Below, piece after piece: positions 701-58,300 of a stretch of 64,000 bases of DNA; within the stretch, counting starts at the first letter, position 1; the number at the start of each line of letters is the position of its first letter. The position numbers were made by a program, and so were the translations under genes. Origin of the DNA: Haliotis rufescens (taxonomy: Eukaryota); assembly GCF_023055435.1 (NCBI RefSeq), contig NW_025964068.1, positions 3,782,001 through 3,846,000 on the forward strand, written 5' to 3'. The notes below the pieces were generated by a model, which made no database searches, was not told where the DNA came from, and saw only the letters and a program-made list of their open reading frames with translations.

Positions 701-1560
701 ACTGCCTCCATGGTCTAGTGGTAGAGCGTCTGCCTAGAAAGCAGAAGGTCGGGGTTTGATTCCCCAGGCTCGGCATTCCAAAGATGTTAAAATATGGTAC
801 TTGATGTTACCCAGCCTGGCACTCAGCAATAAGGGGCTAAAACAAAACTGGATGGCATGGAATAAGTATACAGTCAGGTCTTGTTAATCCAACAATTGAC
901 TTTATCCGACACTAATGATGGGAACCGAATAAATCAGTGCTATTTAGACCCGTTAATCCGACAGTCTCGCACTCTGACTCCGACACACCTAATTTGCAAC
1001 AAATTACCGAAATCACTTATTAATCGGTCTCCCGTTAATCCGACACAGTAATCTGCGTACTCTGTGGTCATCTGCCCGCGAGTACACAGCCCCGTGTTTT
1101 GATGCGAGACAAGTCGGCTGGTAGCTACATATTACAACAAACAACAATTAATGCTTTAAATAAACAAAACAGGATTAATCACATGCTTAGATTACCTCAA
1201 TATCATTAAAATCAGATACAAGTTCTCGCTACCGCTGAGCCCATCCCATTACAGGTCACTTTAGAACGGCCTTTCGCAAACTTTGACCAACCAATGAAAT
1301 GCCTAACAGGAAGTCGACATTAGCCATTAAGAAACAGCTTTCTTGAGATTTGCGGCACTAGTTTTAAACTGGCAACTTCCATTCCAGGCAATGCTTTTTA
1401 AAATATTTTGAATCAGTCATACAGCCCGAACTGTGACTTGACTGTACTATGTCTGAGTGGGTTATTTATGTTAAGCTGCGGCATGATATCTCAGTAGGCT
1501 AGCACTATAAAAACATTGGCATTAGTACAAGCAGACACACAGACAGACAGACAGACACAC
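701..1560 (+). mobile_element. tRNA-derived SINE (family C, Meta/MESC-like core), interrupted by a MITE
   Basis: A-box TGGTCTAGTGG and B-box-like GGTTTGATTCC; body matches the reverse complement of copies at 50621-50967 and 51437-51782 and resumes after 1446. Confidence 0.75.
871..1444. mobile_element. Tc1/mariner/pogo-type MITE
   Basis: TIR cagtcaggtc ... gacttgactg (9/10), TA duplications at 869-870 and 1445-1446; internal ttaatccgaca repeats. Confidence 0.75.
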
Positions 1561-3100: not shown

Positions 3101-5062
3101 GTGAGTAGTCTTCGGGGTGAGTTGGTAGGTAGACTCATGAGAAGGTGGATATGGAAGGTGGAGTTCTGTAGAGTTGTGAGAAGGTGGATGAGTAGATTTG
3201 GGGTGTAGAGTCATGATGTAGAGTCATATGAGAAGGTGGATGAGTAGAGTTGGGGTGTAGAGTCATATGAGAAGGTGGATGAGTAGAGATGGGGTGTAGA
3301 GTCATAAGAGTGAGTGAGTGAGTTTGGTTTTACGCCGCTTTTAGCAATATTCCAGCAATATCACGGTGAGGGACACCAGAAATGGGCTTCACACATTGTA
3401 CTCATGTCGGGAATCGAACCCGGGTCTTCTGCGTGACGAGCTAATGCTTAAACCACTAGGCTACCCGACCGCACCTTAGAGTCATAAGAAGGTGGATGAG
3501 TAGAGTTGGTGTGTGTGGTCAAGATGTAAAGTCATGAGAAGGTGGATGAGTGGAGTTGGTGTGTGTGGTCATGATGTAGAGTCATGAGAAGGTGGATGAG
3601 TGGAGTTTGGGTGTGGAGTCATGAGAAGGTGGATGAGTAGAGTTGGGGTTTAGAGTCATGAGAAGGTGGATGAGTGGAGTTGGGGTGTAGACTCATGAGA
3701 AGGTGGATGAGTGGAGTTGGGGTGTAGAATCATGAGAAGGTGGATGAGTGGAGTTGGGGTGTAGACTCATGAGAAGGTGGATGAGTGGAGTTGGGGTGTA
3801 GAGTCATGAGAAAGTGGATGAGTAGAGTTTGGGTGTAGAGTCATGAGACGGTGGATGAGTAGAGTTGTGTAGAGTCATGAGAAAGTGGATGAGTAGAGTT
3901 GGGGTGTATAGTCATGAGAAGGTGGATGAGTGGAGTTGGGGTGTGGAGTCATGAGAAGGTGGATGAGTGGAGTCATGTAGACTCATGAGAAGGTGGATGA
4001 GTAGAGTTGGGGTGTAGAGTCATGAGAAGGTGGATGAGTAGAGTTGGGGTGTGGAGTCATGAGAAGGTGGATGAGTGGAGTTGGGGTGTGGAGTCGTGAG
4101 AAAGTGGATGAGTGGAGTTGGTGTGTGTGGCCATGATGTAAAGTCATGAGAAGGTGGATGAGTAGAGTTGGGGTGTAGAGTCATGAGAAGGTGGAGTTGG
4201 GGTGTAGAGTCAAGAGAAGGTGGATGAGTGGAGTTGGGGTGTAGAGTCAAGAGAAGGTGGATGAGTAGAGTTGAGGTGTAGAGTCATGAGAAGGTGGATG
4301 AGTAGAGTTGGGGTGTGGAGTCATGAGAAGGTGGACGAGTGGAGTCATGATGTAGACTCATGAGAAGGTTGATGAGTAGAGTTGGGGTGTGGAGTCATGA
4401 GAAGGTGGATGAGTAGAGTTGGGGTGTAGAGTCATGAGAAGGTGGATGAGTAGAGTTGGGGTGTGGAGTCATGAGAAGGTGGATGAGTGGAGTTGGGGTG
4501 TGGAGTCATGAGAAGGTGGATGAGTGGAGTCATGTAGACTCATGAGAAGGTGGATGAGTAGAGTTGGGGTGTAGACTCATGAGAAGGTGGATGAGTAGAG
4601 TTGGGGTGTAGAGTCATGAGAAGGTGGATGAGTAGAGTTGGGGTGTGGAGTCATGAGAAGGTGGATGAGTAGAGTTGAGGTGTGGAGTCGTGAGAAGGTG
4701 GACGAGTGGAGTCATGATGTAGACTCATGAGAAGGTGGATGAGTAGAGTTGGGGTGTAGAGTCATGAGAAGGTTGATGAGTAGAGTTGGGGTGTGGAGTC
4801 ATGAGAAGGTGAATGAGTGGTGTTGGGGTGTAGAGTCATGAGAAGGTGGATGAGTAGAGTTGGGGTGTGGAGTCTTAAGAAGGTGGATGAGTAGAGTTGG
4901 GGTGTGGAGTCATGAGAAGGTGGATGAGTGGAGTTGGGGTGTGGAGTCATAAGAAGGTGGATGAGTAGAGTTGGGGTGTGGAGTCATGAGAAGGTGGATG
5001 AGTGGAGTTGGGGTGTAGAGTCATGAGAAGGTGGATGAGTAGAGTTGGTGTGTAGGGTCGTA
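3101..5062 (+). repeat. 37-bp G-rich minisatellite
   Basis: Unit gagtcatgagaaggtggatgagtagagttggggtgta, roughly 45-50 copies. Confidence 0.95.
3310..3476 (-). mobile_element. tRNA(Asp-like)-derived SINE (family A)
   Basis: Reverse complement of the 43247 copy; 13-bp TSD tagagtcataaga at 3297-3309 and 3477-3489; (TCAC)n tail. Confidence 0.9.
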
Positions 5063-16559: not shown

Positions 16560-17660
16560 TCATCTTAAAAAGGCGTTATGTGCGAAGGGCTATTCGGCGC
16601 GGGCAGCTAGTGCTATAGTTTTAGCTCATTGTCCCTCCACCAGAGTATTTTACGATGACAAGTTGGGATCGTTTGAGACGTTTTTCAAGGCAAAAAAAAA
16701 AGATCCAATAACTGCATCACCACAATTCCTAGATGAATACCACCTACATTTGCGTACAAAGAAACCCTTGAAAGCTAGCACCATTACTACGTATTTGGAA
16801 GCACTTAACTCAGTGTTGTCGTTTAAGAAAAATCGAAAATGACCAAGGTCCCGGAACTACAGGCTCCACTCATTCAGGCTTGAGGATCAGAAGGCCAAGT
16901 TTCGTCCCCCTGCTTGGGACTTAAACGTGGTACCTCGAGGTTTGCGAGGACCCCCTTTGACCCCCTCTATGCATCCTCATTTTATGACCTCACCAAGAAA
17001 ATAATCTTTTTCTTGGCATTAACCACGGCGGCATGGGTGAGCAAGCTACATGCAATCGACATCACCTTTGTCTGTTTTGAGCATGCTCTACACGGAGTGG
17101 CACATCTCAGGTTGTGCTTGGTTGTTGGTTGGTTTGTTGTTTAACGCCGCACTCAGCAATATTCCAGCTATATGACGGCGGTCTGTAAATAATCGAGTCT
17201 GGACCAGACAATCCAGTGATTAATATCATGAGCATCGATCCACGCAATTGGGATTGATGACATGCATCAACCAAGTCGGTGAGCCTGACCACCCGATCCC
17301 GTTAGTCGCCTTTTACGACAAGCATAGTCACCTTTTACGGCAAGCATGGGTTGCTGAAGACCTATTCTAACCCGGAATCTTCACAGGTCAGGTTGTGCTT
17401 GGATTTAATAGCAAAATGTTCATTTATCAGGCCAACCCGATCGTCCATTCACGCTCCCACCAATATCGTCGATTGTGGGAGTCGAAGATGAGGGTGAACT
17501 TCTATTCATCCCCTGTTCCCAAACTAGGCGTGGCTTGAGGAATCGGTTATTTATGCCTGTATCTCCTATGTCCAAGACCAAATTTATTCGCAACACCATA
17601 TCTCAATGATTACGCACAGTCATCCTTCAGGCTTATGACATCGCCAAACTTGATCCGCCA
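16560..17660 (+). pseudogene. DIRS B tyrosine recombinase remnant, split by a SINE and 3'-truncated
   Basis: SAM-like N-terminus, WDLNVV, LALTTAAWVSKLHA (RVSEL box mutated); frame continues LCLDLIAK after 17402. Confidence 0.82.
17122..17389 (-). mobile_element. Family B SINE (non-tRNA structured head), full length
   Basis: TSD tcaggttgtgcttgg at 17107-17121 and 17388-17402; (AAAC/AACC)n tail. Confidence 0.92.
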
Positions 17661-23751: not shown

Positions 23752-23992
23752 TGAAAATCCGGGTTACAAATAGTCTTCAGCAACCCATGCTTGCCGTAAA
23801 AGGCATCAATCAGGATCAGGTGGTCAGACACACTGACCTGGTTGATGCATGTCATCGTATCCCAATTTGCGTAGATTGATGCTCATGATGTCAATCATGG
23901 GAATGTCTGGTCCAGACTTAATTATTTACAGACCGCCGTCATATAGCTGGAATATTGCTGAGTGCGGCATTAAACAACAAACACACAAACAA
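23752..23992 (+). mobile_element. Family B SINE
   Basis: atccgggtta..gtcttcagcaacccatgcttgccgtaaaaggc head and canonical tail; catttga flanks both sides. Confidence 0.88.
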
Positions 23993-31243: not shown

Positions 31244-31663
31244 GACCCGCGAAGATCCGGGTTAGAACAGATCTTCAGCAACCCATGCTTGTCGTAAAAG
31301 GCGACTATGCTTGTCGTAGCGGGATAGGGTGGTCGGGTTCGCTGACCTGGTTGATGCATGTCATCGTTCCCAATTGCGTGGATCGATGCTCATGATATTA
31401 ATCACTGGATTGTCTGGTCCAGACTCGATTATTTACAGACCGCCGTCATATAGCTGGAATATTGCTGAGTGCGGCGTTAAACAACAAACCAACCAACAAC
31501 CAAGCACAACCTGAGATGTGCCACTCCGTGTAGAGCATGCTCAAAACAGACCAAGCTGATGTCATGATGTCAATCACTGGATTGTCTGGTCCAGACTCGA
31601 TTAGTTACATACCGCCGTCATATAGCTGGAATACTGCTCAGTGTGGCGTTAAACAACAAACAA
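31244..31663 (+). mobile_element. Family B SINE with duplicated 3' half and captured DIRS sequence
   Basis: Head gacccgcgaagatccgggttag; two tails separated by 64 bp matching the reverse complement of 17058-17121. Confidence 0.9.
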
Positions 31664-31727
31664 AGTGTCACACCCATCTCACTCACTCACACACTCAATG
31701 CAAGTGCACCCCGCTGGTCTTTATTCC

Positions 31728-32859: not shown

Positions 32860-33080
32860 TTTTGTGTGTTTGTTTGTTGTTTAACGCCACACTGAGCAAT
32901 AATCCAGCTGCGTGTATATGACGGCGGTCTGTAACTAATCGAGTCTGGGCCAGACAATAAAGTGATTGACATCATGAGCATCGATCTACGCAAATAGGAT
33001 ACGATGACATGCATCAACCAAGTCAGCGAGTCCGATCACCCGATCCCATTAGTCGCCTCTTATGACACGGATAGTCGCCC
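32860..33080 (-). mobile_element. Family B SINE, 5'-truncated
   Basis: gtttgttgtttaacgccac...cccgatcccattagtcgcctcttatgac. Confidence 0.85.
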
Positions 33081-33879
33081 GTAGTCTATGAAAACGGGTT
33101 TTTTTTAAATAATTTTATTTATTCAAAAGAACCTTTCCTCTTCTCAAGGAAACTAGAATTGCTTTAGTTTGATCTCAACTTGTCTAGGCTTTTAGTATGG
33201 CGCAGGACTAGGTCGACCGCAGCATGTACCAATGCGAACATTTATTCATTCACTCCATGCATCCTGGTTTGTTATAATCTGGAGACTACATGCATATTGC
33301 CGAGAGGTTCATTTCTTATATATACAAATATGTATAATTGTTTCATTTTTTCCAATGCTCTTGTCCCATTGGAGTACATCTTCACATTAACACAATTAGT
33401 ATAATCTAATTTGTTATGCATAAATCGTCTTATTTTCCATTGCTACCACGACCGACAAAAACGAAGTATTTGCCTAGCTGGACGTTCAATCAAATACGGG
33501 TTACCTTAGGCTAAAACAGGAAATGTGTCTCATACATCGACGCGGCACTTTATCAACACATTTTTATTACCGATAAAAAACTTATAGATATATTTAAGAG
33601 TTCCCGCGTCATAAAAAGCATTCTCTGTTATCCATAAAATAAAATGCCTGACAATACAAATGTATTGGAGGTTATTCAATGTGTGCCCAAATGTGTTGGT
33701 TGGTATTCTTAGTGGAGAAATATAAAACTGTTCCTTCCACACTTTTGTTTTCAAAACTTTAAAAAAAATAAAAATAGGTCATACCCTCTTTCTCACTATT
33801 AAGAAAATGTGCCCGAGAAACAGTTATTTTTATGCAGCCCAGAGACCGTCGGTATAAGGTCTCTGTGTAGCCTTATAAA

Positions 33880-36991: not shown

Positions 36992-38448
36992 AAAAACATT
37001 AGGGATCATGAATGTTTTGGGGGATATTATGAAATTGCGTGCTAAGTCTTTGGTGCGAAAACATATCCCTAGAAATATTCCTGACCCTGAACTTTTCTGT
37101 TCAGCCTATATGTTATTGACTGATCCCAAAAGATTGGATAATATGCTTGCTCACTCCACTCCTTAAACATTTATAAGATAACAAAGCACAGTTTGACTGA
37201 ATGTCATGACTTGGGGACAGGACAAAGTAAAATATACATGGAAATGTTTCACATATTTATATTGTCTCGGTCATGTGATATTCTAGGAATTTTATTACCA
37301 ATATTATACTCCTAATACTTGAGTAGTTTGTAATTTTCATTTATGTGTGAAAATGAGAAATCTTTCAGCTGTCTGACATTTGGCTGTAAATAGTCGAGTC
37401 TGGACCAGGCACCCAGTGATTGATATTATGGGATATTATCAACAACATTGGGTACAATGACATGGTGTCAACCAAGTCACTGAGCATGACCACCCCATCT
37501 GTTTAGTTGTCTTTCACCATGTTCACGACAAGCCTATGAAGTAATTTAAAAAAACAAGACAGATGGGCAGGTGACCAATAAGTGTGGCCCACTTTAAGAC
37601 ATTATGAATATTGAAAAATCTTTAAAAAAGAAAGACACAAATCATGTCTTGATTCAGTTGAAATAATGAAAGCAATTACTCGATAATCTACAAGGAGTTA
37701 TGATAAAATTGAATATGTAAGTAGTCTTCAAATGTTCTGCCAGACAGTCAGGCAGGTGGAGGGAAGCGTCATGCAGCCTGACAAATGTTTCCAGACATGG
37801 GCAGAGAGGCAGGCAGGCAGGCACGCAGGCAGGCAGGCAGTTATTTTGGACACTGTTGAGGACCTATATTCTTATCTGGGATCCACACAATGTAGGAATA
37901 TTATTCTATTGAGCTTTGTTGCAGCACTTGGAGCCAGAAAGAGTGTAGTGAATGCTGCTTTAGCAGAGATTAATCTGGGATTCCAAACATATTGCCCTTG
38001 GCATTCAAACTGGGAAAAACAGATAATTATTCTCATATTAGGAGGTAATTTAACACTGCATTCAATGCAATAGTGTTAAACTAAGCACTAAAGCCTTTTA
38101 GATCCTCTTTATTGCCTGTGCATGTTATCAGTGAAATACGAGTCACCTATACAAGGCCTTAACATTGGTTATCATTGGTTAGAACTCTATGAATTGGGAA
38201 AATTTGTAATTCCAAATAGGGAAGTTGTATTTACCTGGGGTCCATAGTCGGCCTCGGAGCAAGTCTAGACAAATCCGCGTTTGGTGCAAGGTATTTCATG
38301 TCGTCAGTCGTCAGTATTGATGCTGGAGCAGTATCATTGCAGCCTGAAGATAATGAATTCTGTACCAGATAAACCAGTGGTTGATAGCATAAGCAAGCAG
38401 TTCCTGCAGTCAGGATATGATGTTACAAACAAGATGGTTCGTACTGAA

Positions 38449-40118
38449 GAGCTATTCTGTCTTGTAACAGTCATGGAGAGTTATCATGGTTATTGTGTCT
38501 TGTAACAGTCATGGAGAGCTATTGTGTCTTGTGACAGTCATGGAAAGCTATTGTGTCTTGTGACAGTCATGGAGAGTTATTGTGTCTTGTGACAGTCATG
38601 GAAAGCTATTGTGTCTTGTAACAGTCATGGAAAGCTATTGTGTCTTGTGACAGTCATGGAGAGTTATTGTGTCTTGTAACAGTCATGGAGAGTTATTGTG
38701 TCTTGTAACAGTCATGGAGAGCTATTGTATCTTGTGACAGTCATGGAGAGTTATTGTGTCTTGTAACAGTCATGGAGAGCTATTGTATCTTGTGACAGTC
38801 ATGGAGAGTTATTGTGTCTTGTGACAGTCATGGAGAGCTATTGTGTCTTGTGACAGTCATGGAGAGTTATTGTGTCTTGTAACAGTCATGGAGAGCTATT
38901 GTGTCTTGTAACAGTCATGGAGAGTTATTGTGTCTTGTAACAGTCATGGAGAGCTATTGTGTCTTGTAACAGTCATGGAGAGCTATTGTGTCTTGTAACA
39001 GTCATGGAGAGCTATTGTGTCTTGTAACAGTCATGGAGAGCTATTGTATCTTGTGATAGTCATGGAGAGCTATTGTGTCTTGTAACAGTCATGGAGAGCT
39101 ATTGTGTCTTGTGACAGTCATGGAGAGTTATTGTGTCTTGTGACAGTCATGGAGAGTTATTGTGTCTTGTAACAGTCATGGAGAGTTATTGTGTCTTGTA
39201 ACAGTCATGGAGAGTTATTGTGTCTTGTGACAGTCATGGAGAGTTATTGTGTCTTGTAACAGTCATGGAGAGCTATTGTGTCTTGTGACAGTCATGGAGA
39301 GTTATTGTGTCTTGTAACAGTCATGGAGAGCTATTGTGTCTTGTAACAGTCATGGAGAGTTATTGTGTCTTGTAACAGTCATGGAGAGCTATTGTGTCTT
39401 GTAACAGTCATGGAGAGTTATTGTGTCTTGTAACAGTCATGGAGAGCTATTGTGTCTTGTGACAGTCATGGAGAGTTATTGTGTCTTGTGACAGTCATGG
39501 AGAGTTATTGTGTCTTGTGACAGTCATGGAGAGTTATTGTGTCTTGTAACAGTCATGGAGAGCTATTCTGTCTTGTAACAGTCATGGAGAGTTATTGTGT
39601 CTTGTGACAGTCATGGAGAGCTATTGTGTCTTGTAACAGTCATGGAGAGCTATTGTGTCTTGTGACAGTCATGGAGAGTTATTGTATCTTGTGACAGTCG
39701 TGGAGAGCTATTGTGTCTTGTAACAGTCATGGAGAGCTATTGTGTCTTGTAACAGTCATGGAGAGCTATTGTGTCTTGTGACAGTCATGGAGAGTTATTG
39801 TGTCTTGTGACAGTCATGGAGAGTTATTGTGTCTTGTGACAGTCATGGAGAGCTATTGTGTCTTGTGACAGTCATGGAGAGTTATTGTGTCTTGTGACAG
39901 TCATGGAGAGTTATTGTGTCTTGTGACAGTCATGGAGAGTTATTGTGTCTTGTGACAGTCATGGAGAGCTATTGTGTCTTGTGACAGTCATGGAGAGTTA
40001 TTGTGTCTTGTGACAGTCATGGAGAGCTATTGTGTCTTGTAACAGTCATGGAGAGTTATTGTGTCTTGTAACAGTCATGGAGAGCTATTTTGTCTTGTGA
40101 CAGTCATGGAGAGCTGTT
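38449..40118 (+). repeat. 29-bp minisatellite
   Basis: Unit catggagag(c/t)tattgtgtcttgt(a/g)acagt, about 57 copies. Confidence 0.96.
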
Positions 40119-40121
40119 GTG

Positions 40122-42553
40122 TATGGTATACTGTTATGATTATATGTTCTATAGCAGCATATATACTTTATACAGGGTGAGAACTATGGTATACTGTTAT
40201 GATTATATGTTCTATAGCAGCATATATACTTTATACAGGGTGAGAACTATGGTATTTGTATGATTATATGTTCTATAGCAGTATATATACATTATACAGG
40301 GTGAGAACTATCGGAAACTGTTATGATAATATGTTCTATAGCAGTATATATACATTATACAGGGTGAGAACTATGGTATACTGTTATGATTATATGTTCT
40401 ATAGCAGTATATATAGATTATACAAGGTGAGAACTATCGGAAACTGGTATGATAATATGTTCTATAGCAGTATATATACATTATACAGGGTGAGAACTAT
40501 GGTATACTGTTATGATTATATGTTCTATAGCAGCATATATACTTTATACAGGGTGAGAACTATGGTATTTGTATGATTATATGTTCTATAGCAGTATATA
40601 TACATTATACAGGGTGAGAACTATGGTATACTGTTGTGATTATATGTTCTGTAGCAGTATATATACATTATACAGGGTGAGAACTATGGTATTCTGTTAT
40701 GATTATATGTTCTATAGCAGCATATATACTTTATACAGGGTGAAAACTATGGTATACTGTTATTATTATATGTTCTATAGCAGTATATATACATTATACA
40801 GGGTGAGAACTATGGTATACTGTTGTGATTATATGTTCTGTAGCAGTATATATACTTTATACAGGGTGAGAACTATGGTATACTGTTGTGATTATATGTT
40901 CTATAGCAGCATATATACTTTATACAAGGGGAGAACTATGGTATACTGTTATGATTATATGTTCTATAGCAGCATATATACTTTATACAAGGGTAGAACT
41001 ATGGTATACTGTTATGATTATATGTTCTATGGCAGTATATATACATTATACAGGGTAAGAACTATAGGAGACTGTTATGATTTTATGTTCTATGGCAGTA
41101 TATATGCTTTATACAGGGTGAGAACTATGGTATACTGTTGTGATAATATGTTCTATAGCAGTATATATACATTATACAGGGTGAGAACTATAGGAGACTT
41201 ATGATTATATGTTCTATAGCAGCATATATACTTTATACAGGGTGAGAACTATGGTATACTGTTATGATTATATGTTCTATAGCAGCATATATACTTTATA
41301 CAGGGTGAGAACTATGGTATACTGTTGTGATTATATGTTCTATAGCAGTATATATACTTTATACAGGGTGAAAACCAGGGGTCCGGAAATCATCATATGC
41401 GCCGGACATGTCTGATTGGGAATCTCAAATGTCTGGTTTAGAATATTGCTTACCGGACATTTAAATTTTTATGTCCGGACATTCTTAAATTTTGACTGGA
41501 CATGATCAACAGTTAGGACTGAGCAGTTTCTGTCTGCAGTTGTAACACAATGAAGATTATCTATACTGACAAGCTTTGTTTGTTTTGATTGCTGTAAATA
41601 CATCGTACCTACATGATAGTCCAAGTGGTCAATCACTGTAATAGGCAATAAACTGAGTTGACACTGATTAATCGAGGATTAATTACTGAGAACATCGTGT
41701 TAATTTGAGTGAAAGGTGTTTACAACTGTACATAAATACCTTGCATCATCGATGTACCTCATTATCCTCACAATGCTACGATATGTAACCTCAGACAAGA
41801 AGCGAAAGCGTGACGACAGCCAGTTGACCGATGCAGATCAGTCAAAAGGATCTGCCAAACCCTCAAAGTCTGGACGATTATTTTGTAAGTCGTGGCTAAC
41901 GACTTTCACTTGGTTGACATACAATATTTTATTGTTTTCAGTAGAGCTAGTCGTATATTGAATCTTGATTGACCGCCATTTTGCTTTCTGTGACGATCGA
42001 TATCATTTTTTTTATGGTCAATAATTAAGTACACATGAAAAAAGTATTCAAATAACTATTGCTATCAACAATATTTTAGTATTTGTGATTATATTATGTC
42101 TTGTTTTTAAATAATCATTAGTTTTAAAAAAACCCACTTTTCCCGTGAGGTCACGTGATAACCAAATATGGGATAATAGTCTCGATCCAAATGTTACAAC
42201 GCGTACACTTGAGCAGATATAACTCATGAATATTAATTAGACCGTTCACTACGTTAACAGATCGTTATTATAACAGAAACAAACATATGTTTTCCATGTA
42301 TATCTAAAATGATATTATTTGTTAATAATTGTCCGGTGAATTAAACAATTGAAATTGAAATAATTCATCATATTATGAATACGTAACAACTTGTAATGTG
42401 TGTGAAAAGTCGTACTAAAATATGCTATTTGAAGGGGGCGTCGCATAAATGCAAATGTCCGATTGGGATTTCAAATTTTCCGGACCCCTGGTGAGAACTA
42501 TGGTATACTGTTGTGATTATATGTTCTATAGCACTATAGATATACGATACAGG
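40122..42553 (+). repeat. 63-bp minisatellite interrupted by a hAT element
   Basis: Unit tatggtatactgttatgattatatgttctatagcagcatatatactttatacagggtgagaac, about 20 copies, resuming at 42491. Confidence 0.95.
41376..42490 (+). mobile_element. Non-autonomous hAT DNA transposon
   Basis: Perfect 14-bp TIR caggggtccggaaa; 8-bp TSD gtgaaaac/gtgagaac; internal remnant from ATG 41773, KKRKR...RLFCKSWLTTFTWLTY, like hAT transposase N-termini. Confidence 0.9.
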
Positions 42554-44940: not shown

Positions 44941-45144
44941 TTCCTGCGATGATCCGGACTAGAACTGGTCTTCAGCTTGTTGTAAAGAGGCGACTGGTGG
45001 GATCGGGTGGTCAGACTCGCTAACTTGGTTGATGCATGTCATCGTAACCCAGTTGCATAAATTGATGCTCATGATGTCAACCACTGGATTGTCTGGTCCT
45101 GACCCGATTATTTACAGACGTTAAGCAACAAGCAAACAAACAAA
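44941..45144 (+). mobile_element. Family B SINE inserted into a family A SINE relic
   Basis: 12-bp TSD acaatgtgtgaa at 44929-44940 and 45145-45156, which is family A core sequence. Confidence 0.85.
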
Positions 45145-47289: not shown

Positions 47290-48956
47290 CATTGGGTAAC
47301 TGCAAAAGACACCATCCATCCATCCATCCATCCACCTGTCCCTGTACATTGACACACAATCAGCTAGGTCATACATTGGGGTAACTGCAAGAGACACCAT
47401 CCATCCATCCATTCATCCATCCACATACCTGTCCCTGTACATTGACGCACAATCAGCTAGGTCATACATTGGGGTAACTGCAAGAGACACCATCCATCCA
47501 TCCATCCATTCATCCATCCACCTGTCCCTGTACATTGACACACAATCAGCTAGGTCATACATTGGGTAACTGCAAGAGACACCATCCATCCATCCATCCA
47601 TCCATCCATCCACCTGTCCCTGTACATTGAGACACAGTCAGCTAGGTCATACATTGGGTAACTGCAAGAGACCCCATCCATCCATCCATCCACCTACCTG
47701 TCCGTGTACATTGACACACAATCAGCTAGGTCATACATTGGGGTAACTGCAAGAGACCCCATCCATCCATCCATCCACCTACCTGTCCGTGTACATTGAC
47801 ACACAATCAGCTAGGTCATACATTGGGGTAACTGCAAGAGACACCATCTATCCATCCATCCATCCATCCACCTACCTGTCCCGGTACATTGAGACACAAT
47901 CAGCTAGGTCATACATTGGGTAACTGCAAGAGACACCATCCATCCATCCATCCACCTACCTGTCCGTGTACATTGACACACAATCAGCTAGGTCATACAT
48001 TGGGGTAACTGCAAGAGACACCATCCATCCATCCACCCACCTACCTGTCCCTGTACATTGACACACAATCAGCTAGGTCATACATTGGGTAACTGCAAGA
48101 GACACCATCCATCCATCCATCCATCCATCCACCTACCTGTCCCGGTACATTGAGACACAATCAGCTAGGTCATACATTGGGTAACTGCAAGAGACACCAT
48201 CCATCAATCCATCCACCTACCTGTCCCTGTACATTGACACACAATCAGCTAGGTCATACATTGGGGTAACTGCAAGAGACACCATCCATCCATCCACCCA
48301 CCTACCTGTCCCTGTACATTGACACACAATCAGCTAGGTCATACATTGGGGTAACTGCAAGAGACACCATCCATCCATCCACCCACCCACCTACCTGTCC
48401 CTGTACATTGACACACAATCAGCTAGGTCATTCATTGGGGTAACTGCAAGAGACACCATCCATCCATCCATCCACCTACCTGTCCCTGTACATTGAGACA
48501 CAATCAGCTAGGTCATACATTGGGTAACTGCAAGAGACACCATCCATCCATCCATCCACCTACCTGTCCCTGTACATTGACACACAATCAGCTAGGTCAT
48601 ACATTGGGTAACTGCAAGAGACACCATCCATCCATCCATCCACCTACCTGTCCCTGTACATTGACACACAATCAGCTAGGTCATACATTGGGTAACTGCA
48701 AGAGACACCATCCATCCATCCATCCACCTACCTGTCCCTGTACATTGACACACAATCAGCTAGGTCATACATTGGGTAACTGCAAGAGACACCATCCATC
48801 CATCCATCCATCCATCCATCCACCTACCTGTCCCTGTACATTGACACACAATCAGCTAGGTCATACATTGGGGTAACTGCAAGGGACACCATCCATCCAT
48901 CCATCCATCCACCTGTCCCTGTACATTGACACACAATCAGCTAGGTCATACATTGT
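47290..48956 (+). repeat. ~80-90-bp minisatellite with embedded variable (CCAT)n
   Basis: cattgggtaactgcaagagacac(catc)n cacctacctgtccctgtacattgacacacaatcagctaggtcata, about 20 copies. Confidence 0.95.
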
Positions 48957-52009: not shown

Positions 52010-52265
52010 AACCCATGAAGATCTGGGTAGAGAATAGATCTTCAGCAAACCAATCTTGTCGTAAGAGGCGACTATGTTTGTTTTAGGCGACAAACGGGAT
52101 CCGGGGATGCGGGGTGACTTCATTAATGCATATCATCGTATCCCAATGGCGTAGATTGATGCTCATGATGTCAATCACTGGATTGTCTGGTCCAGACTTG
52201 ATTATTTACAGACCGCCATCATATACATGGAATATTGCTGAGTGAGGTGTTAACCAAGAAACCAA
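52010..52265 (+). mobile_element. Family B SINE, full length
   Basis: 13-bp TSD cactatagggtta at 51997-52009 and 52266-52278. Confidence 0.9.
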
Positions 52266-52538
52266 CACTATAGGGTTATGAGGAGGTCATAAGGTGTTTC
52301 CTCCATCAACCAGGTTAGAACTGGTTTCCAGCAACTTATACCTGTAATACGGGGCAATTATGTGGATTGGGTGGTCAGGCCTGGTGCCATCGAACCCTGA
52401 CAGTGTTGGACAGTGTATTTATAGGTTGCTATCATACCGTAGGTATATTGCTGAGTGTGGTGTGTGGACAATACACATACAAACTATGTGTATTTGTGGC
52501 AGAATATGTGGTCAATGCCCAAAACAAAGGGAAATACT

Positions 52539-55313
52539 GGGGTTTAAATGTTGAGGCCCCAAGCCTTTGTTTACTGTTACCAGAGGGTTATGGTAAGGAT
52601 CAGGGTTTGAGTGTTGGGGCTCCAAGCCTTTGTTTACTGGTACCAGAGGGTTATGGTAAGGATCAGGGTTTGAATGTTGGGGCTCCAAGCCTTTGTTTAC
52701 TGTTACCAGAGGGTTATGGTATGGATCAGGGTTTGAATGTTGAGGCTCCAAGCCTTTGTTTACTGTTACCAGAGGGTTATGGTATGAATCAGGGTTTGAA
52801 TGTTGAGGCCCCAGGCCTTGCTAACTGTTATCAGAGGGTTATTGTAAGGATCAGGGTTTGAATGTTGAGGCCCCAAGCCTTTGTTTACTGTTACCAGAGG
52901 GTTATGGTAAGGATCAGGGTTTGAATGTTGAGGCTCCAAGCCTTGTTTACTGTTACCAGAGGGTTATGGTAAGGATCAGGGTTTTAATGTTGGGGCTCCA
53001 AGCCTTGTTTACTGTTACCAGAGGGTTATGGTAAGGATCAGGGTTTGAATGTTGAGGCTCCAAGCCTTGTTTACTGTTACCAGAGGGTTATGGTATGGGT
53101 CAGGGTTTGAATGTTGAGGCCTCCAAGCCTTTGTTTACTGTTACTAGAGGGTTATGATATGGATCAGGGTTTGAATGTTGAGGCTCCAAGCCTTGTTAAC
53201 TGTTACCAGAGGGTTATGGTAAGGATCAGGGTTTGACTGTTGGGGCTCCAAGCCTTGTTTACTGTTACCAGAGGGTTATGGTAAGGATAAGGGTTTGAGT
53301 GTTGGGGCTCCAAGCCTTTGTTTACTGTTACCAGAGGGTTATGGTATGGATCAGGGTTTGAATGTTGAGATTCCAAGCCTTTGTTTACTGTTACCAGAGG
53401 GTTATTGTAAGGATAAGGGTTTGAGTGTTGGGGCTCCAAGCCTTGTTAACTGTTACCAGAGGGTTATGGTAAGGATCAGGGTTTGACTGTTGGGGCTCCA
53501 AGCCTTGTTTACTGTTACCAGAGGGTTATGGTAAGGATCAGGGTTTGAGTGTTGGGGCTCCAAGCCTTTGTTTACTGTTACCAGAGGGTTATGGTATGGA
53601 TCAGGGTTTGAATGTTGAGGCTCCAAGCCTTTGTTTACTGTTACCAGAGGGTTATTGTAAGGATAAGGGTTTGAGTGTTGGGGCTCCAAGCCTTGTTTAC
53701 TGTTATCAGAGGGTTATGGTAAGGATCAGGGTTTGAATGTTGGGGCTCCAAGCCTTTGTTTACTGTTACCAGAGGGTTATGGTATGGATCAGGGTTTGAA
53801 TGTTGAGGCTCCAAGCCTTGTATACTGTTACCAGAGGGTTATGGTATGGATCAGGGTTTGAATGTTGAGGCCCCAGGCCTTGCTAACTGTTACCAGAGGG
53901 TTATTGTAAGGATCAGGGTTTGAATGTTGAGGCCCCAAGCCTTTGTTTACTGTTACCAGAGGGTTATGGTAAGGATCAGGGTTTGAATGTTGAGGCTCCA
54001 AGCCTTGTTTACTGTTACCAGAGGGTTATGGTAAGGATCAGGGTTTGAATGTTTTGGCTCCAAGCCTTGTTTACTGTTACCAGAGGGTTATGGTAAGGAT
54101 CAGGGTTTGAATGTTGAGGCTCCAAGCCTTGTTTACTGTTACCAGAGGGTTATGGTAAGGATCAGGGTTTGAATGTTGAGGCTCCAAGCCTTTGTTTACT
54201 GTTACCAGAGGGTTATGATAAGGATCAGGGTTTGAATGTTGAGGCCCCAAGCCTTTGTTTACTGTTACCAGAGGGTTATGGTAAGGATCAGGGTTTTAAT
54301 GTTGAGGCTCCAAGCCTTGTTTACTGTTACCAGAGGGTTATGGTAAGGATCAGGGTTTTAATGTTGGGGCTCCAAGCCTTTGTTTACTGTTACCAGAGGG
54401 TTATTGTAAGGATAAGGGTTTGAGTGTTGGGGCTCCAAGCCTTTGTTTACTGTTACCAGAGGGTTATGGTATGGATCAGGGTTTGAGTGTTGGGGCTGGA
54501 AGCCTTGTTTACTGTTACCAGAGGGTTATGGTAAGGATCAGGGTTTTAATGTTGGGGCTCCAAGCCTTTGTTTACTGTTACCAGAGGGTTATGGTATGAA
54601 TCAGGGTTTGAATGTTGAGGCCCCAGGTCTTGCTAACTGTTACCAGAGGGTTATTGTAAGGATCAGGGTTTGAATGTTGAGGCCCCAAGCCTTTGTTTAC
54701 TGTTACCAGAGGGTTATGGTAAGGATCAGGGTTTGAATGTTGAGGCTCCAAGCCTTGTTTACTGTTACCAGAGGGTTATGGTAAGGATCAGGGTTTGAAT
54801 GTTTTGGCTCCAAGCCTTGTTTACTGTTACCAGAGGGTTATGGTATGGATCAGGGTTTGAATGTTGAGGCTCCAAGCCTTGTTTACTGTTACCAGAGGGT
54901 TATGGTAAGGATCAGGGTTTGAATGTTGAGGCTCCAAGCCTTGTTTACTGTTACCAGAGGGTTATGGTAAGGATCAGGGTTTGAATGTTGAGGCTCCAAG
55001 CCTTGTTTACTGTTACCAGAGGGTTATGGTAAGGATCAGGGTTTGAATGTTGAGGCTCCAAGCCTTGTTTACTGTTACCAGAGGGTTATGATAAGGATCA
55101 GGGTTTGAATGTTGAGGCCCCAAGCCTTTGTTTACTGTTACCAGAGGGTTATGGTAAGGATCAGGGTTTTCATGTTGAGGCTCCAAGCCTTGTTTACTGT
55201 TACCAGAGGGTTATGGTAAGGATCAGGGTTTTAATGTTGGGGCTCCAAGCCTTGTTTACTGTTACCAGAGGGTTATGATAAGAATCAGGGTTTGAATGTT
55301 GAGGCTCCAAGCC
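52539..55313 (+). repeat. 62/63-bp minisatellite
   Basis: Unit gagggttatggtaaggatcagggtttgaatgttgaggctccaagcctt(t)gtttactgttacca, about 44 copies. Confidence 0.96.
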
Positions 55314-58300
55314 TGCATTGTGCAGGAAACAGATACAATACCATGTAGGCTGCCAATGGGGCAAGATAAAATATTTGATTCTGTTACCGGAAAGTAAGGG
55401 TCATTGTGTGTTATCATTAATCAGATGTTATCTGAATGGATAGGGAAATATGTGTGATTTTTTTTTTTTAATGAAAAGAATAAGATATGAGCACGTAACA
55501 ACTTATTGTTTTACATTGACGTAAACCTTTTTGTACTTTTTATAAAAGTTATGATCGTGATGAATTTGTCTGCAAGTTTTGCAAAACCATAATCAACACA
55601 ACAGTGACACTTGCCTCTTTGGCAAGGTCATTGACAAAATGATTTTGTTCATAACATTCAATGATGCTCCGATGAGGATGTTTAGTATCACTTTGGGCTT
55701 CCTCCCACATTAGGCTGGCACTCTGTGATGTGGTTCAAATACTTTTATGTGAACCCAATCACTGATGAAGATGAAATTGTGACATTGCAGGTATGAGGGG
55801 CACATGTCATCTAGTGAGGAAGTTATATCAAGTGTTACACATCTGCAGAAGCACCTGCCTACACTATAATGTGTTACTCGGTGCATTGGAAAATGTTGCA
55901 CATTGGAAAATGTTGCACATTGGAAAATGAAGCAAAATTCATAACAAAATCAGTTATACATGTTTAGATCAATACATGTTTTCACATAATAACCCCAAGC
56001 CATCCATAAGTCTCTATGAAATTCTTCAAATGTACAGTTAAATAAACAAATAGATTATGTTTACAAAAGGGGGTCAACTTAAGTTGCTCCTAGACTACCT
56101 TCCTCAGTGTACTGTCTGCTAATTACCAAGAAGCAACAACCAGAATGACACAGGTTCTTCCATTTGTACAGCCTTTGTTTTTGTACGATGTTTCTGATAA
56201 TATTACAAGTGAATTCGAGCATTTTCTCATGTACATCAGCCCTATGGCCAGATAGTAGTGCAGTTTGTTGGGCCATCACTCCAGGAGGCTTGTCAATCCA
56301 TTAGGAATTGAGCAGTTGGACACCCGTGCTCTAAACTAGGTTCAGTTAAGGTCCGCCCACAACTGTTATTGATCAGCATTAGTTGTGCAGAAAGCAGTCT
56401 CGTGTGTAGGCCTCAATGGGAGTGGGGTTTTTCATGTTATTCAGAATAAATTTTGAACTTCTAATGCCATGTAGGCTTTTTTCATTTTGAAAGGTTTTCT
56501 TCAGGACATTGATTTCTTTTTGAGAATGAATGAAGACAAATTTGGGTTTTGAAATTGGTTATTTTGTTCAGCAGCTGTTGACTAGCTCACACCCTCAAAT
56601 AATCATTATAATGGTGTAGACATATATTAGTAGAATGGTAGGTGGGGTAGTTTTCATTCCTGAGTATATACGAAATGGGTACCCCAAATAGGTTTTATTT
56701 ATTTATTTTTTAAATTGAGCATGATTTGACAGTGCAACAGAGAACTGGCTCAGTAGAGAATATGCTAAACAGTTGGCTCAAAACATAAACAATTAAAGCC
56801 TTTGTATTGAATATATTCCGCCAATTTGTGTTTTCATTCTGATAAGGAGACACAAAACAAGCAAAATAATGAGACTGATTTTTTCCTATTTACTACTTGA
56901 AAGTTGGATGAGGTCAGTTTGAACACTTCTAAATACATGCCAAGCTAGTACTCACATCAACTGGTCCCTTACGTGATCGGGAGGAATTTGTATGGAATTT
57001 AGAGGAATTTGGCGGAACAAGATAAGACTATTCATGATAGTTCAGAGTTGCATTTTGCAAAGCCATGTTATAGGATTAATTTCAATTTCAATTTTGGTGA
57101 ATATTTTGGTGAAAGTTATCATGTTTATTGAAAACATTCGCATGTTTTTATGGTTCCTTATATATTTGTAGGAAAACATTATTTAAGTGAAATATTATCT
57201 GGAATGTTATCAATTGATTAGTTTTGTTACTAATCATAGAACTGGAGAGACTCTCTGTTTGAATATTCTATTTGTTTATGATGATACTTACATTTTGTAA
57301 TTATTGCAGCTGCTATTGTATCTAATGGAAAACACCCATACAGGTATCCATGCTTGTTGTTAAAATAACTTGTGCGATGGAACTGTACAAACACCTGGCT
57401 TCAAACATGTGTTGATTGTTGGGATGGGTCATGTATGGCATTCATTATTGTCACCAATTATGGAGTTGAGTGATTGATAAAGGAATCTGTTCACATTACA
57501 GAATGAAAAAGTGGTTATGGATGTTTAATGAGTGTAATATTTTGTTACCATTGCTTACTGGTTGACACAGACAGTATCTTCGTTCCAGAAACTTTGATGA
57601 CGAAGATGAGAGGTGTGTGTGTGTGTGTGTGGGGGGGGGGTCCCTAACTTTTGACAAGTAGATGTTTTTGTAGACTTAAAATTAAGGATATTAACTTCTA
57701 CTGTGAGTGGCATTCAGAGTGGCATTAATGACCTGATATTAATGTGATAGAAAACTTGCAATATCTATTCCAAGTTAATCTTACTGCTGATTGGCTCAAT
57801 TATATTCTGCATCCAATCACAACATCCAAGAAGACATGCTTTGACTTAAATTGTGTGAGTGTTACTGAATTTTATGATGCAAATCTGTTGGATTCCTGTA
57901 TGGGGCTTTGTCCAGACTTATAACTTTTTAACTGGATTTGCAATCTATTGGACTTGTCAGTCTAGCTGTCGGGCTTACATTGATGTGTATTTTAACACTA
58001 AAGTATTAAAGTTTGTATTGTTTCTACAGCAGATCTTTTGGTCTGAGGCCATTGCTCACTCTGTTGGGAGTGCTTGATTTCCTCAGTGTTTTGGAGACCA
58101 GTAGTTGGCACAGCTGCCTCATCCATTCACCTCCCACACAATTCAATTTGTGACTCTCCTGGCCTTGGACTTCCTGATTGAGTAACTGCTCTTTGCTTCT
58201 GGATAAATGCTGGTGAATAACTGATTGATGCTTCTCATTAGCAAGGGGCAACTTTGACAGTTTTGGCTTTAACATAGTGTAAAACTTAGCTCCATATGAC

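Follow-up and report, generated by a model that had tools for sequence, protein, structure and literature searches.

The LP-SINEs of abalone (Hdi_LP and Hmi_LP; Matetovici 2016, PMC4758252) are 255-bp elements whose first ~70 bp also occur in the 5′ UTRs of three LINEs, two of them Nimb and one RTE (Nimb-17_LMi, I-3_DR, and RTE-9_CPB). LP stands for "LINE promoter", a role that was proposed from the position of this head, with experiments called for and with the promoter/ribozyme of L1Tc named as an analogy; in its accessible text, the paper proposes the promoter without reference to an RNA structure, an occurrence in viruses, or a partner LINE (PMC4758252). The exact 5′ ends of promoter-less LINEs and SINEs are today explained by internal promoters or by ribozymes. 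HDV-like ribozymes were reportedly found in RTE and other LINEs by Ruminski in 2011. Those of R2, RTE, and L1Tc mark the exact 5′ end of promoter-less retroelements (PMC3774820, accessible text), and Pr77 of the trypanosome L1Tc/ingi elements, an HDV-like ribozyme and promoter, is a short 5′ module common to otherwise unrelated LINEs and their short derivatives (PMC4758252). A further class, the exonuclease-blocking xrRNAs, which as of 2021 had been characterised only in viruses (PMC8374639), has a compact pseudoknot close to a fixed 5′ end of the RNA (PMC8374639, PMC12397905, PMC10321173, PMC10520033).

To compare these systems with a SINE of Haliotis rufescens, we analysed a window of 64,000 nt, i.e., the whole stretch of DNA under study, and the SINE copies it holds (Table 1). 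The first-pass annotation had listed copies at 17389 (minus strand), 31244, 52010, 44941, and 23752, and heads are indeed present at all five. The element has a length of ~255 bp, target-site duplications, terminal tandem repeats, and a ~70-bp head that is homologous to a LINE 5′ UTR and not to a small RNA (80% over 61 columns between SINE head and LINE head; blastn). It fits the known LP-SINE, likewise a ~255-bp abalone SINE with target-site duplications, a non-tRNA head derived from a LINE 5′ UTR, and a microsatellite tail (PMC4758252). The supplement of that paper prints a LINE-derived head from scallop with the same landmarks as the abalone head, and we infer identity with Hdi_LP from length, architecture, and this scallop head. 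Beyond the LP-SINE paper, we found a covarying pseudoknot, copies in viral 3′ UTRs, and own-genome LINEs that share both head and tail with the SINE.

Table 1. Features of the SINE copies in the window and parts of the head of the copy at 17389 (window coordinates).
Feature	Position	Strand	Remarks
Full-length SINE copy, LP-SINE type, ~268 nt	17122..17389	-	assigned by length, head, flanking duplications
Target-site duplication, 5′ copy, 13 nt	17390..17402	-	reads 17402-17390
Target-site duplication, 3′ copy, 13 nt	17109..17121	-	reads 17121-17109
Two 5′ bases before S1	17388..17389	-	pairing not conserved: canonical in 6/15 and 5/15 families
Pseudoknot stem S1, 5′ strand	17384..17387	-	pairs with 17374-17371
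Stem S2, 5′ strand, 7 bp	17376..17382	-	pairs with 17362-17356; hairpin of the first-pass annotation
Stem S1, 3′ strand, inside S2 loop	17371..17374	-	
A-rich loop L3	17363..17370	-	
Stem S2, 3′ strand	17356..17362	-	
Stem P3, 5′ strand, closes second domain	17346..17351	-	with 17301-17298
Decayed, duplicated first copy of P4 module	17326..17345	-	
Near-invariant core: internal-loop strand, 4-bp P4 hairpin, 7-nt purine-rich loop, 3′ A-rich strand	17302..17324	-	
Stem P3, 3′ strand	17298..17301	-	
SINE tail segment common to 3′ end of own-genome I/Nimb-like LINE	17140..17171	-	90.6% over 32 columns
Second full-length SINE copy	31244..31500	+	
Older full-length SINE copy	52010..52266	+	
Decayed SINE copy with deletions	44941..45119	+	
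SINE copy without first few bases	23752..23992	+	head at 23746-52
5′-truncated SINE copy, begins within second domain	32862..33100	-	

In the 1.33-Gb genome, the 19-nt head core occurs 38,743 times without mismatch (19,320 + 19,423), and a reversed control of this core does not occur at all. As had been claimed, the head is not tRNA-derived and is free of Pol III boxes: it matches no tRNA, 5S RNA, or snRNA, and patterns for the A box and the B box, which do recognise both in two tRNA-like heads elsewhere in the window, found neither in the SINE head. The SINE thus lacks the A and B boxes and the tRNA-like head of tRNA-derived SINEs. The two tRNA-like heads (704-770, plus strand; 3399-3470, minus strand) are probably tRNA-derived SINEs themselves. 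The copy at 31244 carries, at 31401-31563 (plus strand), sequence of the copy at 17389 (17220-17058, minus strand; 163 aligned columns), namely its 3′ half together with ~50 nt of its 3′ flank, after which the locus resumes as another SINE 3′ half (31558-31664); a template switch or conversion between these inverted copies 14 kb apart is the likely origin. The window also contains several long minisatellite arrays (38445-41375, 47290-48955, and 52540-55314). Three small-RNA libraries yielded 8, 114, and 12 SINE reads, mostly antisense, ~31 nt long, and located in the body, and no pile-up was seen at +1 among these few reads. One dominant start characterises antisense ~31-nt small RNAs at L014:1673-1703 in two of the three libraries (63 and 9 molecules), which points to a piRNA-like targeting of the SINE body.

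Comparison between families supports a predicted head structure that consists of an H-type pseudoknot (S1 of 4 bp, a 1-nt loop, S2 of 7 bp, and the A-rich loop 3), followed by a domain of stem, internal loop, and hairpin. Exact-core scans provided at least 122 metagenome loci, 9 viral loci, and 47 prokaryote-assembly loci. Among the matches listed, 155 instances with the upstream landmark formed 39 clusters, of which 11 decayed own-genome clusters and 3 prokaryote chance matches were left out, giving 25 families. Each strand was then scored against the partner of its own family (native) and against the partners of other families (cross), with 20,000 permutations. For S2, the native score was 13.28 and the cross score 8.71 (0/20,000 permutations); S1, formed by the 5′ strand and the hairpin loop, reached 7.28 and 3.09 (0/20,000), and P3, formed by the strands before and after the core, 9.84 and 7.74 (1/20,000). 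In a structure-fitted count of 15 hand-picked intact families, 103/105 cells of S2 and 58/60 of S1 were canonical. Two-sided changes were seen at 7/7 pairs of S2 and 2/4 pairs of S1 in a 32-row model alignment, which was fitted to S2 and P4 and includes related rows.

These data confirm the 7-bp hairpin of the first-pass annotation and correct two of its other helices. The outer stem is paired in 47.5% of cells, and its native score (3.68) lies below the cross score (4.32; 16,503/20,000 permutations). The proposed pseudoknot between the loop and a downstream segment was not supported either (6.36 versus 6.57; 12,875/20,000), although three of its pairs can still form in 85.7% of cells, with one two-sided change. 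Of the pseudoknotted three-way junction that had been suggested, the pseudoknotted character was retained, whereas a three-way junction is not present and two of the four helices were in the wrong register. The small 4-bp hairpin (P4) is conserved and almost invariant across animals and viruses; because it is nearly invariant, partly through selection, it is not proven by covariation. Most rows have U-U as the pair that flanks P4, and 5/32 have G-C, G-U, or A-U. A tandem duplication of this hairpin module had been claimed for three copies; it is full at 17389 and only partial at 31244 and 52010, and among 30 unselected loci the module is doubled in 25. P3 is weak in the window SINE and weak or absent in some viral copies, and it has compensatory variants in one of the LINE families described below (family B). 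The 3′ pentamer of L3 served as a selection landmark when instances were gathered, but recurs in LINE heads found without it; the 5′ part of L3 tolerates long insertions. In the SINE families L072, L167, and L126, long low-complexity insertions occupy loop 3, and the rest of the fold is kept. Folding of single sequences was ambiguous (z of −0.5 to −2.1 on four copies) and gave the unsupported outer stem in two of the four.

The placement of the head outside the known Rfam classes was upheld, with no match on the head either in the window at gathering score or in eight loci at E ≤ 5. xrRNAs, which stall Xrn1 at a fixed site and have a ring of ~15 nt around the 5′ end, contain at least one pseudoknot (PMC8374639, accessible text), and so does the head by prediction; the secondary structures of xrRNA classes 1–3 and of coremin, however, are not found in it, and no Rfam match was obtained. 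According to the accessible parts of PMC8374639 and PMC12397905, classes 1 and 2 form a three-way junction with a double pseudoknot, neither of which the head has, and the loop of class 3 pairs with a 3′ strand, whereas the head loop pairs with the 5′ strand. Coremin (hairpin and spacer) differs from the head in sequence; as described in the sources available, it is a small hairpin of pseudoknot-like character and depends on a second hairpin downstream, and the head likewise combines a pseudoknot with a downstream stem-loop. The xrRNAs characterised by 2021 are viral, whereas the head fold occurs mostly in retrotransposons.

HDV-like ribozymes share with the head the position at the exact 5′ end of promoter-less retroelements, but their nested double pseudoknot (P1, P1.1, P2, P3/L3, P4, and a catalytic C in J4/2) is not seen in the SINE head, whose covarying helices give a single H-type pseudoknot with a nested domain and which has no Rfam match at E ≤ 5. 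The head has one pseudoknot and no P3/L3/P1.1 active site; a nested stem closes its C-U-A-A-like stretch, and the C is paired in P4. In a mapping by eye onto HDV-like, pistol, and twister folds, the resemblances, i.e., this stretch and the A-rich loop, failed both the covariation test and Rfam. The Rfam models of twister, hammerhead, pistol, hatchet, and twister-sister did not match either (window, and eight loci at E ≤ 5). Pr77 resembles the head as a shared 5′ module of LINEs and short derivatives; by structure, however, the head fold is neither HDV-like ribozyme nor promoter as Pr77 is (PMC4758252), and it is also viral. Topic searches of the literature retrieved only the 2016 LP-SINE paper as concerning this head (PMC4758252, accessible text), six spellings of the head core were printed in none of the papers searched (i.e., those within reach, which excludes subscription papers and Repbase notes), and the fold was not found in the accessible text of PMC13725137 or of a 2026 preprint on new ribozymes. 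The suggestion of an undescribed structured RNA therefore holds for the conserved pseudoknotted fold, here with a corrected structure, and not for the SINE family, which is known.

Further information came from LINEs. L289, a LINE from another host, begins with the fold and encodes a zinc-knuckle ORF1 and an ORF2 with endonuclease, reverse transcriptase (RT), and RNase H. Its ORF1 was used as a query to find own-genome LINE loci without using the motif (15 examined of 107 scored matches), and the fold is located upstream of ORF1 on the coding strand in 15/15 of them (model R1). Two of these elements share the I-group domain layout, by which the own-genome LINEs appear I/Nimb-like. They fall into family A (12/15), in which a 57-nt HDV-like segment is fused directly upstream of the fold, and family B (3/15), in which the element starts at the fold. 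The segment of family A is a separate, canonical-looking HDV-like ribozyme candidate. Its modelled structure shows the HDV-like layout as described in part in PMC3774820 (accessible text), i.e., a 7-bp P1 from the first base of the element, P2, a 3-bp P3, L3, P1.1, and a C in J4/2; the reference copy pairs at 7/7 positions of P1, 6/6 of P2, 3/3 of P3, and 2/2 of P1.1, and the C in J4/2 (C46) is present in 30/30 copies. Scores against RF02682 were 25–29 bits, below the gathering score of 44. Thirty further family A loci were collected with the fold and the downstream UTR only (three share one flank); the HDV-like segment was kept in all 30 (29 near-intact, 1 partial), and none started at the fold.

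The 3′ end of a family A element agrees with the SINE tail at 90.6% over 32 columns (copy L014 versus L306:5761-5790), which makes this I/Nimb-like LINE a candidate partner of the SINE; in its accessible text, the 2016 paper names no partner LINE (PMC4758252). Regarding other observations on these LINEs, the 57-nt HDV-like candidate (L290:1013-1069, G000:C445 near 31221397; L310-L339) is minimal, has no P4 stem, and forms the very 5′ end of an I/Nimb-like family that is abundant; the clades with 5′ ribozymes listed in the accessible text of PMC5786205 are R1, R2, R4, RTE, and Ingi as well as LOA, with I/Nimb absent. A hairpin-capable stretch of ~25 nt just 3′ of the fold is conserved in the LINE 5′ UTRs of two mollusc hosts (L289, L290-L304, and L239) and absent from the SINE, and may be a candidate translation element. 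The LINEs L290-L304 cluster (G000:C445 31.2-32.1 Mb, C46, and C101), often inside other LINE copies, and L295 and L303 each hold several heads, which suggests nested or targeted insertion.

With both LINE families at hand, the start of the element could be compared across families. The 5′ ends of full-length copies are sharp, and the head coincides with the 5′ end of the element, both as originally noted: 16/27 unselected copies (those of the first 30 core matches that reached the SINE tail) begin within 4 nt of G1, and the duplication abuts G1 in 11/21 best-match and 4/7 unselected copies in which a duplication was found. The 30 best matches to a full copy all begin within 4 nt of G1 as well, but were selected for that. 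Four element families, i.e., the window SINE, LINE family B (25 loci with 22 distinct flanks), and two SINE families from metagenomes, start at the same distance from the fold, namely six bases ahead of loop 1 and two ahead of the 4-bp S1. The +1 base is G in the window SINE, U in 21/22 distinct flanks of LINE family B, A in 22/33 copies of one metagenome family, and G in 6/8 copies of the other, and the preceding flank is random in each of the four. To judge from these start sites, the 5′ boundary is set by distance to the fold, not by base.

Outside animal genomes, the whole fold was identified in seven viral contigs. Six of them are RNA-virus-like by Pfam and correspond to five distinct viruses, L197 and L204 encoding the same protein and being counted as one. 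RdRP was found in L199, L202, and L205, and RNA-virus capsid families in L195, L197, L202, and L204. In all six, the fold is on the coding strand, 4–99 nt after the last long ORF and 91–185 nt from the contig end; in L195, the contig closes with a second, partial copy of the fold in tandem. The seventh, L198, is a large DNA-virus contig with the fold in an intergenic position between co-oriented ORFs. Viral matches without the fold were set aside as chance (2/9 in one set, 11/18 in another), and searches for proteins related to three of the viral ones led to no further virus. In prokaryote genomes, 47 exact core matches compare with an estimated 139 or so expected by chance. About nine matches in prokaryote assemblies carry a full or partial fold, in eukaryote-type SINE/LINE sequence with microsatellite tails and, in L289, a complete LINE. 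Because the fold-bearing sequence looks like eukaryote SINE/LINE, a bacterial occurrence was set aside and is not claimed. L289 (G001:C4:518400-527400) is a complete two-ORF LINE in a symbiont scaffold, and L223, L236, L240, L242, L250, and L253 are other cases of eukaryote-type LINE/SINE sequence inside prokaryote assemblies, likely through contamination or chimeric contigs. Among the metagenome loci, one SINE family (L155, L086, L129, L137, and L150) has the fold followed directly by a tRNA-like region, an arrangement resembling that described for scallop MESC SINEs. A variant SINE at L046:1440-1760 consists of the second domain alone and then a decayed second head, with HDV-like-looking pieces in the upstream part.

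We propose, with a probability of about one half, that the ~90-base SINE head acts as an exonuclease-blocking, xrRNA-like RNA that gives the element its exact start. The first-pass annotation had offered a self-cleaving or a processing RNA, and processing in this wider sense is the best-supported of its options. SINE copies, which presumably have no promoter of their own, would be transcribed from host promoters; decapping, debranching, or poly(A)-site cleavage would open the host read-through RNA to Xrn1/Xrn2, and these enzymes would chew 5′-to-3′ up to the fold and stall there, so that the RNA would be trimmed to the exact start of the element. The second domain may dock on the pseudoknot or bind a conserved host factor, likely giving the resistance that a plain pseudoknot lacks, and the I/Nimb-like LINE with the shared tail would copy the trimmed RNA back into the genome.

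In favour of an exonuclease block, covariation of the helices extends over SINEs, LINEs, and viruses that are unrelated to each other. RNA viruses lack a DNA stage; selection on the helices, together with the presence of the fold in such viruses, places its function at the RNA level, to the extent that comparison can show it. This bears on the published LP proposal, by which the head is an internal DNA promoter from a LINE 5′ UTR and the RNA fold incidental or secondary. We regard this as very improbable: the compensatory changes show selection on RNA helices, the fold is present in RNA viruses, and transcripts begun at +1 would lack the HDV-like segment of family A, which is missing from 0/30 copies. 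In addition, polymerases prefer purine start bases, whereas +1 is almost always U in family B. The promoter would be in keeping with the position from which it was proposed and with Pr77 of L1Tc, which is both promoter and ribozyme (PMC4758252), and the invariant core could be a factor-binding site.

A cut at the edge of the fold is disfavoured for the same reason as initiation there, because either would remove the HDV-like segment kept in all 30 family A copies. An exonuclease block would spare this segment, because HDV-like cleavage leaves a 5′-OH end, which is no substrate for Xrn1. We therefore consider it unlikely that the head, in its corrected fold, is a self-cleaving ribozyme of a new class with its cut site two bases before S1, although the precise 5′ ends in four families and the compact two-domain fold with conserved single-stranded bases would suit one. 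There is a loophole in family A: the HDV P2 helix ends with the −1 base, and this could silence a cut. Non-LTR elements do use 5′ ribozymes (PMC3774820, PMC5786205), and UTR ribozymes do occur in RNA viruses (PMC13725137); according to the accessible text of the latter, however, the known viral ones are mostly in 5′ UTRs or form tandem pairs, and a cut in our viral contigs would sever the genome from its 3′ end. Moreover, conservation is lacking at both bases of the would-be cut site, and L105 carries two complete folds in tandem (one locus only).

An exonuclease block would explain both the distance-fixed boundary and the place of the fold at the start of viral 3′ UTRs, where known xrRNAs are also located, likewise in tandem copies (PMC8374639, PMC10321173, accessible text). 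Several points speak against it. No family A copy is trimmed to the fold edge (0/30), while leaky trimming might give some; H-type pseudoknots from frameshift sites do not stall Xrn1 (PMC10321173); and just two bases precede S1, which is short for an enzyme with a single-strand channel (PMC12397905). LINE RNA that is trimmed and uncapped would still have to be translated independently of a cap. Furthermore, the near-invariant P4 looks more like a site constrained by a protein or by catalysis than like a mechanical block.

There is another explanation, by which the head is a cap-independent translation or ribosome-docking element (3′-CITE/IRES-like) for uncapped LINE and viral RNA, and by which the SINE could dock where the LINE ORF2 protein is made. 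CITEs and Alu-SRP provide analogies for such a role. A hairpin kept almost unchanged in animals and viruses points to a host ligand that is itself conserved, and family A RNA would need such an element once uncapped by HDV cleavage. In tombus-like and toti-like contigs the fold occupies the 3′ UTR, and in LINEs and a DNA-virus contig it lies upstream of ORFs. Alone, however, this explanation leaves the start two bases before S1 in four families unaccounted for, the fold is kept in non-coding SINEs, and no Rfam IRES or CITE model matched, and we rate it as unlikely. A translation role is compatible with the exonuclease block, as a second job of domain 2.

If true, an exonuclease roadblock would be a new route for jumping genes to an exact start, and it would recast the "LINE promoter" head of 2016; if the head cuts itself instead, it would be a new ribozyme class. 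For the abalone LP-SINE, a candidate partner LINE can now be named, and natural controls are at hand in the sister LINE families, of which one has an HDV-like ribozyme upstream and the other has none. A review of 2021 describes the search for xrRNAs in cellular genomes as open (PMC8374639, accessible text). With tens of thousands of copies in a single genome and further occurrences in diverse animals and viruses, the ~75-nt fold makes this question testable.
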